From contig CAVZLU010000001.1 of assembly GCA_963776355.1 (NCBI GenBank), positions 5,685 through 69,684 of the forward strand: 64,000 nt of DNA, written 5' to 3'. Source of the stretch: an uncultured Chloroflexia bacterium. Lineage in GTDB: Bacteria; Chloroflexota; Limnocylindria; Limnocylindrales; CSP1-4. The translations under genes and the position numbers were made by a program. Under the pieces are notes generated by a model. The model did not search any database and was not told the origin of the DNA. It worked only from the letters and a program-made list of their open reading frames with translations. Of this stretch, positions 7,536-12,478 are shown one piece after another (the first letter of the stretch is position 1; each line of letters opens with the position of its first letter).

Positions 7536-7961
7536 TCACTGGCTTTCCGCCGCTGTAGCTGCTGCCAGCTTGGTGCGCCAACTCCGCGGGCCGCACTTGA
7601 GCACATGCCCGTGGTGCAGCAGCCGGTCCAGCATGGCGGTGACCGCGGCCGCATCGCCCAGCAGTTTTCCCCAGTCTTCCACGGGTCTGTTCGAGGTCAG
7701 CAGCGTGCTCGCCCGTTCGTATCGCCGCATGATGATTTCCAGCAGGTCCTCGGCCGCGGTATGCGGCAGTTTGCGCATGCCGAAATCGTCGATGATGAGG
7801 AGCGGCACGCTGGCCACCGACTCCATGAACTGCTTGCGCGTACCCTCCACTACCGCCTCCGCCAGATTGTCCAGCAGGACATGCGTCTCCCGGTACAGCA
7901 CACGATAGTTCTGTTGGATAGCGGCTTGGCCGATGGCTTGGCCCAAGTGACTCTTTCCCGT
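7536..7961 (-). pseudogene. istB: IS21 helper ATPase IstB, 3' part
   Basis: (T)GKSHLGQAIG, LLIIDDFG (Walker B), RRYERASTLLTSNRPVEDW, AMLDRLLHHG. Confidence 0.92.
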
Positions 7962-7963
7962 CC

Positions 7964-8386
7964 CACCAGAGCCAGTCACATGATGCCTATGTTTCCGAGC
8001 GCGTAACGGTACATTACCGTTGGCTCGCTCTCCACGAAGTTACCCTTGACTGTCACCGGAGGGTTTCTCTTCCTGATGGTGAGCACCTCCACTGTGAGTT
8101 GCCGGATGGAGCGATGGGTGCGATTCCACTTTGGATGACAGATCCTGTGACCTGTGCCGGCTTCTCTTTCGGTGAACCCTTGGTTTCAGTCGAAGCGCTC
8201 AGCAATCTCCGCGCGCTGCTGGACTCGGTGCGATCCAGGCATTCGACCAGGGCAGGCACCGAAGGAAGCGGAGAGGAGAGCCATAAGGGGCCAAGGGTCT
8301 CAGCGCCCCAAGAGATGACGCGGGAAGTTTCGGGGCCAATCATACTGCGAACTTTAAGGAGTCCCGGGGGTGAGGGAAAGTGCTGA
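7964..8386 (+). CDS. Small accessory protein of the recombinase element (Y4bD/DUF5372-like), lacking its start codon in the integrated state
   Basis: Stop-free frame from the element's left end: HDAYVSERVTVHYRWLALH...ELPDGAMGAIPLWMTDPVTCAGFSFGEPLVSVEALSNLRALL; no ATG/GTG/TTG until 8099; family name from recollection only. Confidence 0.65.
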   Translation, partial: HQSQSHDAYVSERVTVHYRWLALHEVTLDCHRRVSLPDGEHLHCELPDGAMGAIPLWMTDPVTCAGFSFGEPLVSVEALSNLRALLDSVRSRHSTRAGTEGSGEESHKGPRVSAPQEMTREVSGPIILRTLRSPGGEGKC

Positions 8387-8916
8387 AACCGGATGTCATG
8401 CACTGCGCGACGGGAAACGTACGACACAGCTTCCGGAGAGTTTCTCCACACAGGCTGGTCGCAGCCGTTTTCGAAGTGGTGCGAAGATACAGCGCACCAA
8501 CGATGCGGCTGATCAGGCTCAACTATAGTCGGGCCCGAAGCGTGCTATGTGTCTGCCGGATTTACCCCGGCTGTTGGCTTCATAATCCGACAACTCTCTC
8601 TCAGTGGGTCTATAGTGTTGGTGATCGTCACCACCTAAAACAGGAGTGCCACCGGAATAACTCGCGATGCCGATTCTTCTCTGTAAGGATGCCTCCTCTC
8701 TCCAATCGGCTCGATTACCCGTCCGGCGTAGTCTCAGTGTCGGGCACTCTCTTGTCCGAATCAACACCGCCAACGAATCCAGCTGAGGTCCCTTGGCCGA
8801 GTTTCGTCTCGGATCTATGCTTGGCGCTGGCGACCTCCTATGATTACGGAAAGGTGCCGGCGGTCTGTCGGTGCCTCGTAGCCAAGAACGAAGACCGAAG
8901 GAGATACGCAGCAGCA

Positions 8917-9113
8917 TGACTCGGAATCCTAAAGCGCCAGCGGCCCACCAGCAGCTGCTCTTTTTTCAGGCAGCCCAGCGACCACTAGAGCTGCCCAGCG
9001 ACAAACAACGAGAACTCCAAACAGCAGTAGCGGACCTTCTGTTGAATGCCCTCACGGGTGACGATCTCATCGACAGTGGAGGAACTGATGACGAACCCCA
9101 AGCTCACGCCTGA
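8917..9113 (+). CDS. Small hypothetical protein overlapping the recombinase start
   Basis: MTRNPK...QQLLFF...LPSDKQRELQTAVADLLLNAL; overlaps the recombinase 5' end, a layout I recall in related elements. Confidence 0.55.
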
Positions 9114-11184
9114 CCATCTACGCCGCAAAGCCATTATCTACATCCGCCAATCTACACCCAGCCAGGTACTGTACAACAGGGAAAGCCAGCGACGGCAGTA
9201 CGGGCTCGCCGACTATGCGCGGTCGTTGGGCTTCGAGGAGGTGGAGACCATAGACGACGATCTGGGCCGTTCCGGTTGTGGGTTGGTGGAACGCCCAGGC
9301 TTTGAACATCTGGTGGCCGAAATCTGCGCCGGGCAAGTGGGAGCCGTGTTCTGTATCGAGGCTTCGCGCTTGGCCCGAAACGGTCGAGATTGGCATCACC
9401 TAATTGAACTGTGCGGTTTGGTCAACGCCTTGGTGATCGACCCGGAGGGGATGTACGATCCCCGTCTCATCAACGATCGCCTGCTCTTGGGGCTTCGGGG
9501 CACAATGAACGAGTACGAGGTGAACCTGCTCCGGCAGCGCTCCCTGGAAGCCATTCGTCAGAAAGCGCAACGCGGCGAGCTGCAATTTCGTCTGCCCATT
9601 GGTTATTGTTGGACCCTGGCTGGCAAGATCGAGATTGATCCGGATCAACGCGTGCAACAGGTCATCCGCCTGATCTTTGAAAAACTCGGCGAACTGGGCA
9701 GCGTGCGTCAGGTGTTTCTGGCTTTCCGTCGCGAAGGGATTCTCCTGCCAACGCTAAATCTGAACGATGATCCGTTGGGCCCGAAAGTCAGTTGGAAGCC
9801 TGGCCGGTACGGCACCATTCTGAAGATCGTAAGCAATCCCGTGTACGCGGGTGCCTACGCGTTTGGTAAGACAGAGGTGCGCACGAGCGTTGTCGATGGC
9901 CGAGCGCGGAAAACCGAGGGCCATCAGAAGCCGAGAGAAAGTTGGGCAGTCTTGATCAAGGGCCACCATGCCGGTTACATCTCTTGGGAGCAGTTCGAAC
10001 GGAATCAGGTACTATTGAGCGAGAATGCTTACATGCAGTCGCGTATGGGTCGTAGGTCAGGCCGGGGCGGTAAGAGCCTGCTAGCTGGGCTGCTGCGTTG
10101 CGGCCGCTGCGGTCGAATGTTGAATGTCTCGTACAAAGGCCGAGGCGGCAACCGGCCATGTTTCGATTGCCGGGCCATGGTCAACCACGGACTGAAGAGT
10201 TGTATCAGATTCAGTGGCTGGAGGCCCGACCGAGCGGTGTCCTGCGAGATTCTGCGCGTGATCGAAGGTAGCGCCGTGGAAGCGGCTCTGGAAGCGGCCG
10301 GGCGGATGACGCAACAAGACGCGGAATGGCGCCGTGCGTTAGACCTGGAGTTAGAACAGGCCCGTTATGAAGCCCGTTTAGCGGCGCGTCGGTACGAGGC
10401 CGTGGATTGCGACAACCGCTTGGTAGCCAGTGAACTGGAAGGGAGATGGAATGCCGCGCTGGAAAAAGTGCGGGAACTAGAGAACCGAATGCAAGAGGCG
10501 GAATCCACTGCGCAGGCCAAACCTGTTCCGAGTAAGGAAGCTTTGCTGGCGTTAGCCGAAGATCTGCCTGGGATCTGGAACGCGCCGGAGACCGACATGC
10601 GACTGAAGCAGCGGATTGCCCGAATTCTGATCCAAGAGATTGTGGCAGATCTGGACGAAAAGGCCAATGAGATCGTCCTGATCATCCACTGGCAGGGTGG
10701 ACGCCACTCGGAGTTGCGCGTGGCTCGAAACAAGACTGGTCACCACGGCAGGTGCACTAACGTCGAGGTATTTGATCTGATCACTCAAATGGCGGGCCAA
10801 TATCGCGACGAACAGATCGCCGGGACGCTGAACCGGCTTGGACTACGGACAGGCGCGGGGAATAGCTGGGACGCGGCGCGGGTTCATGCTCTACGTGCAA
10901 AGCTGGACCTTCCAGCATTCGATCCAGCGCGGCCAGGGCCGGTCATGCTGAGCCTGGACCAGGCTGCAACTCAGCTCGGCACCTGCCGCACATCGGTCAG
11001 GCGATTGATCCGGGATAAGACTCTGCCAGCCACGCAAGTCATCCCCTACGCACCTTGGCAGATCTCGGAAGAGGCCGTCAAATCGCAGACCGTTATCGAT
11101 GCCGTAAAGAAAATGCAGATGCGCAGTCATGCCCCGCGGCCACGAGATGTGGATGACAAGCAGTTAATGTTTTCAATGTCTTAA
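9088..11184 (+). CDS. Large serine recombinase (resolvase, recombinase, Zn-ribbon, coiled coil, C-terminal HTH)
   Basis: GGAGGA RBS, YIRQS catalytic Ser, DDDLGRSG, ERPGF, EASRLARN, NPVYAG, GLLRCGRCGR, C-terminal excisionase-like HTH (LSLDQAATQLGTCRTSVRRLI). Confidence 0.95.
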   Translation: MTNPKLTPDHLRRKAIIYIRQSTPSQVLYNRESQRRQYGLADYARSLGFEEVETIDDDLGRSGCGLVERPGFEHLVAEICAGQVGAVFCIEASRLARNGRDWHHLIELCGLVNALVIDPEGMYDPRLINDRLLLGLRGTMNEYEVNLLRQRSLEAIRQKAQRGELQFRLPIGYCWTLAGKIEIDPDQRVQQVIRLIFEKLGELGSVRQVFLAFRREGILLPTLNLNDDPLGPKVSWKPGRYGTILKIVSNPVYAGAYAFGKTEVRTSVVDGRARKTEGHQKPRESWAVLIKGHHAGYISWEQFERNQVLLSENAYMQSRMGRRSGRGGKSLLAGLLRCGRCGRMLNVSYKGRGGNRPCFDCRAMVNHGLKSCIRFSGWRPDRAVSCEILRVIEGSAVEAALEAAGRMTQQDAEWRRALDLELEQARYEARLAARRYEAVDCDNRLVASELEGRWNAALEKVRELENRMQEAESTAQAKPVPSKEALLALAEDLPGIWNAPETDMRLKQRIARILIQEIVADLDEKANEIVLIIHWQGGRHSELRVARNKTGHHGRCTNVEVFDLITQMAGQYRDEQIAGTLNRLGLRTGAGNSWDAARVHALRAKLDLPAFDPARPGPVMLSLDQAATQLGTCRTSVRRLIRDKTLPATQVIPYAPWQISEEAVKSQTVIDAVKKMQMRSHAPRPRDVDDKQLMFSMS

Positions 11185-11185
11185 C

Positions 11186-11201
11186 GAGGAGTAGCAGAAT
11201 G
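11186..11201 (+). promoter_or_regulatory. Orphan RBS plus start codon at the element's right end
   Basis: GAGGAG (11186-11191), 7-nt spacer, ATG (11199-11201), immediately after the recombinase stop codon. Confidence 0.7.
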
Positions 11202-11206
11202 TCACG

Positions 11207-11538
11207 GTGCCGCCGGGACCCAGGAAAAGTGCATCTTCCCGCTTGCCGATGAAAGCACAGGTGGCCAGGTCAAACACCAGGCTGCGATTCATCTTCGGGT
11301 TAAAAGTGAAGTCGAAGTTGTCCAAAGTCTTGTGCGGGTCGCGGAAGGCGGCCTGTTTGCGCCGGCGATCCAAGAGTCTCTCGCTGCGGCGGGTAAGCTC
11401 GTCACTCACCAGACACGAGATCAGATCGATCGGCGCCATGGCTTCGGCCTGCGCTTGGCGCAGTCTGGTTTCCAGCACGGCGGCTGTGCCGCCGAGCCGG
11501 AGTTGTCGTAAAGCCCGTTGTAATTCAATGAGGTTCAT
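11207..11538 (-). pseudogene. istB: IS21 helper ATPase IstB, 5' part
   Basis: MNLIELQRALRQLRLGG...AAFRDPHKTLDNFDFTFNPKMNRSLVFDLATCAFI...LFLGPGGT. Confidence 0.92.
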
Positions 11539-11955
11539 GGTTCGCTCTCCTGGGTTTTGCTTTGAATGAAATCGCGGTATTCGGTGAGGTCGCGGATCAG
11601 GGGATCGACTTGCCGCAGGCTCAGAGGCAATTGCGGACCCCGTTCCAGATAGCGGCGCACAAAACGGTAGTAGTTGGAAGCGCCGGTCTCCAGGGCCACG
11701 GCGCAGGCATCTTCCACCATCGCCGGGCCATGCTTCTTGGCCAGCCCCAGCACGCCCTGAATGCGGCGTACGGCGACTTGCCCCTCCTCCTCGTACATCC
11801 TGCGGCACACGACTCCCATCTGCTGACCGGCACGGTCGGCGCGCAGCAGTAGGTGTTGTATCCCCGGCGGTGTGTGTTTGGGGCGGTCCTCGTCCTTGAT
11901 CCGATGTTTGCCACGCACCTGAGGCAGGTGTTCCCGCAACAGTTCGCCGGTCTGC
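11535..11955 (-). pseudogene. istA: IS21 transposase IstA, C-terminal fragment only
   Basis: TGELLREHL...AVRRIQGVLGLAKKHG...ACAVALE...YRFVRRYLER...QVDPLIRDLTEY; stop overlaps the istB ATG. Confidence 0.8.
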
Positions 11956-12055
11956 GTCGCCGACATCGCCACGTCGTTCCAGATCAAGCTCTGACCCGGC
12001 GCCTCAGGGCCTGTGGCCGAGTCGCGGTCGTGGTCAGGAGCCTCAGGGAGGCGAG

Positions 12056-12478
12056 ATGGGCGAGGTAGACGAATTCCTGGGCGCGGTGCTGCCGACCTTG
12101 CACGAGATGGAGATCGCGTTCCACAACGGCGACGTCGGTCCGCGCCTTGCAACCTGGTCGCATAACGATCCGGTAACCGTGTTCGGCGCCCTGCTGACGA
12201 AACGTGGCTGGAGTGAGCTCGCGCCGGCGTTCGAATTCCTGGCGTCCAGGTTCTCCAACGGCACGGCATACGAGTACGAGGTCATCGGGGCGGGGGCGAG
12301 AGGAGACCTCGCCTACATCGTCGGATACGAGCACACGATGGCTTCCGTGGGCGGAGCGGAGCCCGCGGCCTATGACCTGCGCGTCACGACCGTCTTCCGA
12401 CGCGAGGACGGCCAGTGGAAGATCGTCCATCGGCACGCCGATCCGCTGCCGGAGAGGACACCGCGCGCCGTCAGCTGA
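12056..12478 (+). CDS. NTF2/SnoaL-like (DUF4440) protein
   Basis: GGAGG RBS; GDLAYIVGYEH, LRVTTVFRREDGQWKIVHRHAD. Confidence 0.85.
   Translation: MGEVDEFLGAVLPTLHEMEIAFHNGDVGPRLATWSHNDPVTVFGALLTKRGWSELAPAFEFLASRFSNGTAYEYEVIGAGARGDLAYIVGYEHTMASVGGAEPAAYDLRVTTVFRREDGQWKIVHRHADPLPERTPRAVS

Follow-up and report, generated by a model that had tools for sequence, protein, structure and literature searches.

A serine-recombinase element inserted in istB splits a probable recombinase-cofactor gene at its own attachment site

The element in istB and the gene split by its ends

The subject of this study is a large-serine-recombinase element in a 64,000-nucleotide stretch of DNA (hereafter the window) from an uncultured Chloroflexia bacterium (GTDB lineage Bacteria; Chloroflexota; Limnocylindria; Limnocylindrales; CSP1-4; GenBank assembly GCA_963776355.1, contig CAVZLU010000001.1, positions 5,685 to 69,684 of the forward strand). 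The element is 3247 bp long, is present as a single copy in the window's genome, and interrupts an IS21-type istB gene on the minus strand, inside its Walker-A (P-loop) codons. The attachment site of the element (attP) cuts one of its genes in two, and this gene is whole only when the two element ends are joined. The features concerned are the following:

7536 to 7965, minus strand: 3′ part of istB, from the GK[ST] of the P-loop to the stop codon (Pfam IstB_IS21, E = 8.7e-39)
7966 to 11212, plus strand: mobile element of 3247 bp, its ends ambiguous by the 2-bp CC common to 7966–7967 and 11213–11214
7964 to 8389, plus strand: headless open reading frame (ORF) of 140 codons plus stop, diverged DUF5372-like, with its predicted folded domain at residues 11–96
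7968 to 8005, plus strand: P′ arm of attP (left-end recombinase site), also coding for residues 6–18 of the joined protein
9088 to 11184, plus strand: large serine recombinase of 698 amino acids from ATG 9088, with GGAGG upstream; frame open from 9046
11165 to 11212, plus strand: P arm of attP (right end), with the Shine-Dalgarno (SD) sequence GAGGAG at 11186–11191 and ATG at 11199–11201
11213 to 11214, no strand: right copy of the crossover dinucleotide CC, placed from empty-site contigs
11215 to 11538, minus strand: 5′ part of istB, from the N-terminus to the first P-loop glycines (Pfam IstB_IS21, E = 6.3e-16)

The recombinase carries Resolvase (E = 5.9e-21), Recombinase (E = 2.2e-17) and HTH_17 domains above the Pfam cut-offs, while its Zn_ribbon_recom match scores 25.2 bits against a cut-off of 25.3, with cysteine pairs that are invariant in 12 relatives. 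At the left end, the element opens into a stop-free and start-less frame (7964–8386, 140 codons, stop at 8387–8389), the first in-frame ATG, GTG or TTG of which is TTG 8099 (i.e., residue 46 of the headless frame and codon 50 of the joined ORF; the first in-frame ATG of the joined ORF is codon 55). The frame stays open for 14 more codons into the left flank, with no ATG, GTG or TTG before it meets a stop. At the right end, GAGGAG is followed after a 7-nt spacer by the ATG at 11199–11201, located 15 nt past the recombinase stop, which in the integrated copy heads a frame of just 17 codons and no plausible gene. When the right end was joined to the left end by computation, a 144-codon in-frame ORF resulted, whichever shared dinucleotide serves as the crossover. 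The start-less left end, the SD–ATG pair with nothing plausible behind it and the in-frame joined protein of 144 amino acids had each been put forward by an earlier reading of the letters of the window (hereafter the original prediction), and all were recovered here.

To place the exchange point, assembled contigs of four sequencing runs were compared with the window (contigs drop rare forms). Empty-site contigs were found in two of the four (the soil runs X1 and X3); they join 7965 to 11213 and skip exactly 3247 bp, with two letters (CC) that fit either side of the joint (the short side is 28 nt in X1; in X3 a 772-nt contig has a side of 255), which places the exchange at CC 7966–7967/11213–11214. 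The original prediction had set the crossover at the GT shared by 7960–7961 and 11207–11208, i.e., 6 bp away. This GT is indeed present at both ends in the same register, and moving the crossover to CC alters only residues 4–5 of the joined protein and keeps its frame, on which the predicted gene depended. Joining 7965 to 11213 onward restores an istB ORF of 251 amino acids with the P-loop GPGGTGKS at residue 107, and the insertion is of the kind made by large serine recombinases, i.e., conservative, with a 2-bp crossover, no target duplication and istB restored in frame. The element is polymorphic in nature (present or absent), with precise ends. No circle junction of the window's own element was found in the contigs of the four runs, which lose rare forms, so that its absence is not implied. 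Another soil sample (run X5) yielded a contig in which the element is present in a diverged form, with many substitutions and a 52-bp deletion (one T instead) at 8505–8558, in the non-coding stretch between the headless ORF and a small ORF described further below.

Reading frame, selection and joined forms among relatives

Relatives of the recombinase were collected by scanning one genome per species, which yielded 60 loci in bacterial genomes, metagenome-assembled ones and, for L021, that of an isolate. A tblastn match to the left-end ORF was present at 40 of the 60, in most cases starting at residues 1–6, i.e., at the very end of the element. Homologue conservation begins at this left end; conservation from TTG 8099 onward only was the pattern that the original prediction had named as speaking against a split gene.

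The phase of the junction was then assessed in copies whose contig spans both element ends, which carry the right-end motif of the family and in which the IstB frame on either side is open, with the register set by restoring the fixed-length P-loop G..G.GK[ST]. This fixed-geometry, open-frame test replaced an exhaustive search over all pairs of ends capable of restoring a P-loop, which was not strict enough and let many registers pass. Seventeen of the 40 loci were excluded: an end lay off the contig in L012, L013 and L019; the recombinase was disrupted or the right-end motif absent in L025, L033 and L059; the flank was not IstB, or was IstB with a stop at the filter, in L004, L006, L028 and L036; L029, L035, L037 and L040 are only distantly related and do not show the family motif; the contig ends within the recombinase in L030 and L043; and the match lies on the opposite strand in L054. 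The junction was in phase 0 in all 23 IstB-inserted copies (22 relatives and the window), and in every one of them the first P-loop glycine codon lay 19 nt after the right-end start codon. L011 has the same geometry, but with stops in its decayed IstB flank. Because the copies share descent, these 23 are not 23 independent trials. The in-frame join that the original prediction expected of related elements was also recovered in four of four deeper DUF5372 clades, by a weaker method that is described below.

Sequence evolution offers what we regard as stronger evidence than the frame count. The joined proteins align from residue 1, and the joined frames are stop-free for at least 100 codons in 24 of 24 cases; in L023, GTG replaces ATG as the right-end start. 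An internal in-frame ATG is absent from seven of the 24 joined proteins, the position of the first internal GTG or TTG shifts among the joined ORFs from codon 32 to codon 50, and the flank holds no in-frame start in 14 of 24 cases and only scattered GTG, TTG or ATG codons without a good SD sequence in the others. A selection test (NG86 method; 23 sequences, L009 omitted) gave a ratio of nonsynonymous to synonymous substitution rates (dN/dS) of 0.18 for the start-less codons 14–49, 0.18 for codons 50–95 and 0.81 for the tail, with a value raised to 0.52 in codons 6–13 (P′ arm), and codon entropy was highest at the third position. Codons 14–49 lie past the recombinase site and before any usable start, and, judging from these substitution patterns, the start-less part is under protein-level purifying selection. 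The in-frame junction is more than chance.

The right-end motif itself, i.e., an SD-like sequence, GCA and a start codon, was present between –40 and +200 nt relative to the recombinase stop at 43 of the 58 loci with sequence in that interval; the remaining 15 include several with a looser SD–ATG by eye, or with a disrupted recombinase. The spacer between the recombinase stop and the motif ranges from about 0 to 100 nt while the motif is fixed, and at five distant loci an ATGA combines the start codon with the stop of the recombinase. A stop–start overlap of this kind is the usual sign of translational coupling, and it makes sense only if a coding body follows. The consensus sequences of the P and P′ arms form an imperfect inverted repeat (15 of 25 positions identical), in which the ATG lies inside a mirrored motif (ACAT/ATGT) of both arms and the SD part is not mirrored in the P′ arm.

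Naturally joined ends were sought in metagenomes with a junction pattern made of the right-end and left-end motifs at the predicted spacing. This pattern matched none of the integrated loci and, depending on the variant, 12–19 of 24 computed junctions; for the metagenome search a looser pattern was used, which was not itself run against the integrated loci. The looser pattern matched six metagenome contigs, three of which carry the recombinase 3′ end, the SD sequence, the ATG and an uninterrupted ORF contiguously, with the joined ORF at full length (167–168 amino acids) in L064 and L065 and cut to 84 amino acids in L069. The other three (L066–L068) were rejected as chance pattern matches, having ORFs of 1–3 codons and no recombinase, and viral contigs gave no match to the joined-form pattern. 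L064 (2696 nt) is exactly one circularly permuted unit, with recombinase residues 99–708 at its start and 12–98 at its end, as would be expected of a circle or a collapsed tandem array. The attP configuration is real DNA. The joined contigs, the in-frame junctions across the family and the conservation from the left end onward together support the claim of the original prediction that attP lies inside the gene and that a translation start is provided only with the ends joined.

As to the insertion targets, the IstB-inserted family, as seen in the window and among loci L005–L046, uses one fixed P-loop codon position and always lies antisense to istB, the IstB homologues concerned sharing only about 30% identity with one another. 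This is a serine-recombinase element that targets a conserved motif of another mobile element. The central dinucleotide of attP (positions 14–15) varies among the elements (CA, GG, CC, GT or GA). Other relatives sit in other transposition genes: the flank of L004 holds what we take, by eye, to be an IS66-like frame, the sequence to the right of L044, L047, L048 and L063 is presumably that of an IS110-like transposase (by eye), and the gene interrupted in L089 (genome G047) is one that we assume to encode an IS1380-like transposase. The right flank of L061 codes for a GPPGTGKT P-loop in sense orientation.

The protein family and its predicted complex with the recombinase

By sequence comparison, the window ORF is best described as a diverged relative of DUF5372 (PF17342), and not as a member by Pfam's own rule. 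Its L024 relative scores 21.2 bits against DUF5372 (cut-off 25; E = 3e-4) over profile positions 1–70 of 78, starting from residue 13, and DUF5372 matches at E ≤ 0.01 were obtained for 37 of 83 relatives (best 5.1e-08). Moreover, 29 of the 30 ESM Atlas clusters nearest to the window ORF are DUF5372 (score 0.94), and the motif variant specific to the window's clade recurs in an independent, 63%-identical protein (P0006); a search of NCBIfam gave nothing useful. A DUF5372 match is present in 13 of 201 genomes of the phylum, and a profile search of a library clustered at 50% returned 2260 relatives at E ≤ 0.001. Of the best 150 gene calls of these relatives, 66 begin within the domain region, 65 are extended by long stretches of unrelated sequence and 19 have a short N-terminus. 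Several of these 19 start with a methionine 9–10 residues ahead of the conserved H-N/S-A-H, where the joined form is predicted to begin.

At loci of other clades whose ORFs match DUF5372 significantly in Pfam (L070–L078), no ATG lies upstream of the domain in nine of nine cases, and, within the sequence available, a recombinase homologous to that of the window (40–50% identity) lies downstream in eight of the nine, L075 being the exception. The right ends of L080, L085rc, L086 and L089 carry GAGG or GGAGG, GCAGT and then an ATG at or overlapping the recombinase stop, and in all four the dinucleotide 14–15 after the ATG recurs, in frame, 55 nt upstream of the domain, each junction implying a leader of 23 amino acids. 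This four-of-four result requires the shared dinucleotide, without which a dyad scan was ambiguous (12–13 of 25, mixed phases). In L089, where the element interrupts the IS1380-like transposase, restoring the transposase frame puts the ATG in phase with the DUF5372 ORF; an uninterrupted IS1380-like copy was not found in G047, and the L089 register rests on the restored transposase motif. From these loci, the split arrangement appears to be a property of the whole DUF5372–recombinase module and not of the window element alone. The elements of G047 have an extra ORF of 169 codons between the DUF5372 gene and the recombinase (4395–4901 in L089), and the tail of the L010 ORF has a weak DUF2924 match (E = 0.035); it is possible that some elements carry a third component.

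The fold was modelled with AlphaFold2 on an alignment of 83 rows (mean predicted local distance difference test score (pLDDT) of 78, and at least 95 over residues 11–60). The model comprises strands at residues 12–15, 27–36, 39–45 and 51–55, short helices and a long helix at 76–96; of the four strands, only the last would remain in a protein initiated at TTG 8099 (residue 46). A Foldseek search against the PDB gave no match below E = 0.37, the nearest shapes being SH3/Tudor/Cren7-like barrels, and no similarity to a solved recombination directionality factor (RDF) was found in sequence or, at this best E value, in fold.

Subsequently, the complex of the recombinase with ORF residues 1–100 was modelled and scored 0.72 in each of three runs, compared with 0.00 for the best of three controls; the score mark was reached by 58 of 80 solved complexes and two of 110 mismatched pairs, counts that are rough as own alignments were used. 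At least 68% of the contacts agree among the runs, with a partner pLDDT of at least 72. On the recombinase side, the predicted interface takes in the zinc ribbon (337–344 and 363) and the coiled-coil flanks (387–404, 480–496, 506–519 and 532–542), with 532–542 being an invariant motif among the relatives, and the long helix takes part in it on the partner side. DBD2 and the base of the coiled coil are the sites at which known RDFs bind, although these are not related in sequence (PMC11722253). The modelling supports a protein that is predicted to bind the recombinase zinc ribbon at the coiled-coil base. It is also the one line of backing for the guess of the original prediction that the protein is a directionality factor or an integration cofactor.

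The element holds one further reading frame:

8916 to 9113, plus strand: small 65-codon ORF overlapping the recombinase start, status uncertain (from the ORF list)

No Pfam family matched this ORF, and tblastn matches to it were obtained in L004, L027, L054, L064, L065 and L069. A small ORF upstream of and overlapping the recombinase start is weakly conserved (8916–9113 in the window, 2302–2412 in L064 and 3829–4014 in L004), and its L064 version shares sequence with the tail of the joined ORF, read in a different frame; the near-neutral dN/dS of that tail may hide a second, overlapping gene. With 3247 bp, the window element is about 550 bp longer than most relatives (2605–2706 bp), and the extra length sits between the headless ORF and the recombinase (8387–9087), where no function was found for it. 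Upstream of istB, an istA-like frame (11535–12269) looks truncated, and an unrelated ORF starts at 12056 (12056–12478; by eye). It is possible that what hosts the element is no more than a remnant of IS21.

Proposed action of the split gene, alternatives and parallels

We consider it likely that the split DUF5372-type gene is expressed only from joined ends and that its product acts as a directionality-type cofactor of the recombinase which licenses integration. According to this proposal, the right end (P arm) would supply the SD sequence, the ATG and the first five codons, and everything from codon 6 on would come from the left end (P′ arm). The gene body of an integrated copy would be without a start codon and the protein could not be made, while joined ends (in an excised circle or at the inner junction of a tandem) would form a complete cistron directly behind the recombinase gene, from which the protein would be made together with the recombinase. 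The product, predicted to be a small SH3-like barrel with a long helix that sits on the recombinase zinc ribbon at the coiled-coil base, would then act as a cofactor of the directionality type, available or not according to the state of the DNA itself. With regard to polarity, the recombinase alone (integrated state) would give rare excision, the recombinase with its cofactor (joined state) would be licensed to integrate, and integration would split the gene again and thereby turn the cofactor off. We infer translation from the joined form only, binding to the recombinase and this direction of the effect. Integration licensing is favoured because a classical RDF would shut off attP × attB just when the ends are joined and integration is required, and because the partner cistron is coupled to the recombinase, both of which are reasoning and not data. 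That DUF5372 as such is an 'inverse' directionality factor, licensing integration and with its synthesis hard-wired to the attP state, is a bolder and more tentative proposal, which we would sooner doubt than affirm.

Several observations weigh against the proposed mechanism. Two of the three joined contigs depart from a simple circle: in L065 (1–3279), the right end of one unit is joined to the left end of another to which it has only 81% identity, and L069 (11813–14630) holds one unit and at least 347 nt of a second copy, which breaks off at ORF residue 74, in a contig with chromosomal genes. The expressing form may in fact be a tandem junction, as well as or instead of a free circle. A promoter scan of the natural joined contig L064, which covered sigma-70-type promoters only, gave no site. 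The window ORF has no Pfam match, and hence stays below the DUF5372 gathering score, and it is without the family motif H-P-L-x-G-Q. The crossover dinucleotide is the same at both ends in only 14 of 24 loci, which may be due to later mutation or to tolerated mismatched crossovers. The conservation of the ATG is partly explained by recombinase binding, because the ATG lies inside the mirrored arm motif, and the binding of the protein to the recombinase is a prediction from structure modelling. Finally, the proposed polarity is, to our knowledge, the reverse of that of every characterised serine-integrase RDF and without precedent, and a classical RDF made only after excision would block re-integration.

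Should the protein be a classical RDF, it would promote attL × attR and block attP × attB, and the integrated copy would be locked in and excised only in trans, with an incoming circle or a tandem junction as the source, much as an archaeal split integrase is supplied by a superinfecting relative. This role agrees with the existence of tandem junctions (L065 and L069), with the predicted binding site, which is the site of known RDFs (PMC11722253), and with the excision of archaeal split-integrase elements by an intact copy from another element, as described in a review (PMC8371274). However, the cofactor cistron lies directly behind the recombinase, with the ATGA overlap in five loci, so that a circle would always make both proteins and could never re-integrate, no RDF-free window being apparent, and we therefore hold a classical RDF to be unlikely.

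The other two alternatives deny the split gene its role altogether. That the right-end SD–ATG is a mere recombinase-binding motif, with translation of the ORF in the integrated copy relying on some other route such as an internal or non-canonical start or read-through from the flank, would fit the position of the ATG within the dyad-symmetric ACAT motif of both arms and the dN/dS of 0.52 in codons 6–13, as a DNA-level constraint predicts. We nevertheless rate it as very improbable, given that the SD sequence is not mirrored in the P′ arm, that codons 14–49 are needed for the fold and are selected like the rest of the domain, yet have no conserved start within or before them, that ATG or GTG recurs in the flank only as the antisense of the GK[ST]H His codon, which is out of frame, and that distant clades with different end sequences retain the SD sequence, the ATG and the frame. 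Hardly any weight attaches to the idea that the headless ORF is a decaying remnant without present function. The window copy is indeed diverged and without a Pfam match, and the tail evolves almost neutrally (dN/dS of 0.81), but the domain has a dN/dS of 0.18 across 23 copies with recombinases about 60% identical to that of the window, all 24 joined frames are stop-free over at least 100 codons, the 2260 relatives at E ≤ 0.001 speak for a maintained family, and the window shares its motif variant with the independent, 63%-identical P0006.

The proposed cofactor gene has parallels in several known systems. Circles of insertion sequences carry junction promoters, and Lyras and Rood are said to have described one in 2000 for Tn4451 (Tn4451/Tn4453, TnpX). 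Promoters at joined ends also switch on genes that the circular state requires in ICEclc (Pcirc) and ICEKp1 (P3′end) (PMC13023037). These systems assemble or reposition a promoter, whereas the window element joins a ribosome-binding site and start codon to a coding body; on L064, no –35 and –10 elements were found to be brought together, among sigma-70-type sites. In the integration-dependent immunity of mycobacteriophage BPs, it is reportedly the 3′ end of the repressor that is altered, with both forms being translated, whereas in the window element the 5′ end with the start codon is removed and the output would be all-or-none. For BPs and its relatives, attP lies within the regulatory (repressor) gene and the product differs between the integrated and the free state (PMC4557955).

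In the archaeal SSV1, pTN3 and pT26-2, an attachment site likewise lies inside an element gene that is whole only in the circle, which PMC8371274 discusses as a built-in directionality control; the same review restricts SSV1-type 'suicidal' integrases, with attP in the integrase gene, to archaea alone and compares the intact gene with an RDF. The gene split in the SSV1 type is a tyrosine integrase that is cut mid-gene, whereas the window element is bacterial, keeps its serine recombinase intact and has an accessory gene cut between codons 5 and 6, so that only the translation start region is removed. The split-gene principle, exclusive to archaeal tyrosine integrases according to that review, would on the present sequence evidence extend to bacterial serine recombinases. 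Like the RDFs gp3 of phiC31 and SprB of SPbeta, the product is a small element-encoded protein that is predicted on the integrase zinc ribbon at the coiled-coil base, and unlike known serine-integrase RDFs its gene is split by attP and its effect on directionality is perhaps reversed. DUF5372 (PF17342), a family without a described function, has the same neighbourhood, with a homologous serine recombinase downstream. A literature search, outside which most subscription journals lay, turned up no earlier case in which a gene gains its translation start by recombination at attP, and none of the papers searched mentioned DUF5372 by name or connected serine recombinases with istB.

If the proposed mechanism is true, the split gene would be a minimal, regulator-free switch in which the recombination product decides whether the partner of the recombinase can be made, and it would explain the directional control of movement in a two-gene serine-recombinase element. 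It would also give the DUF5372 family a testable function and account for the inconsistent starts assigned by gene callers. Pairs of an integrase and a cofactor that limit their own expression are also of practical interest to genome engineers, and the precise insertion into IstB P-loop codons and other transposase genes is a case of mobile elements targeting mobile elements. Were the more tentative 'inverse' directionality factor to prove true, a widespread clade of two-gene elements would store directionality in DNA topology with no regulator, these elements would live as hyperparasites in the transposition genes of IS21, IS1380, IS66 and IS110, and essentially all DUF5372 database entries would carry wrong N-termini.

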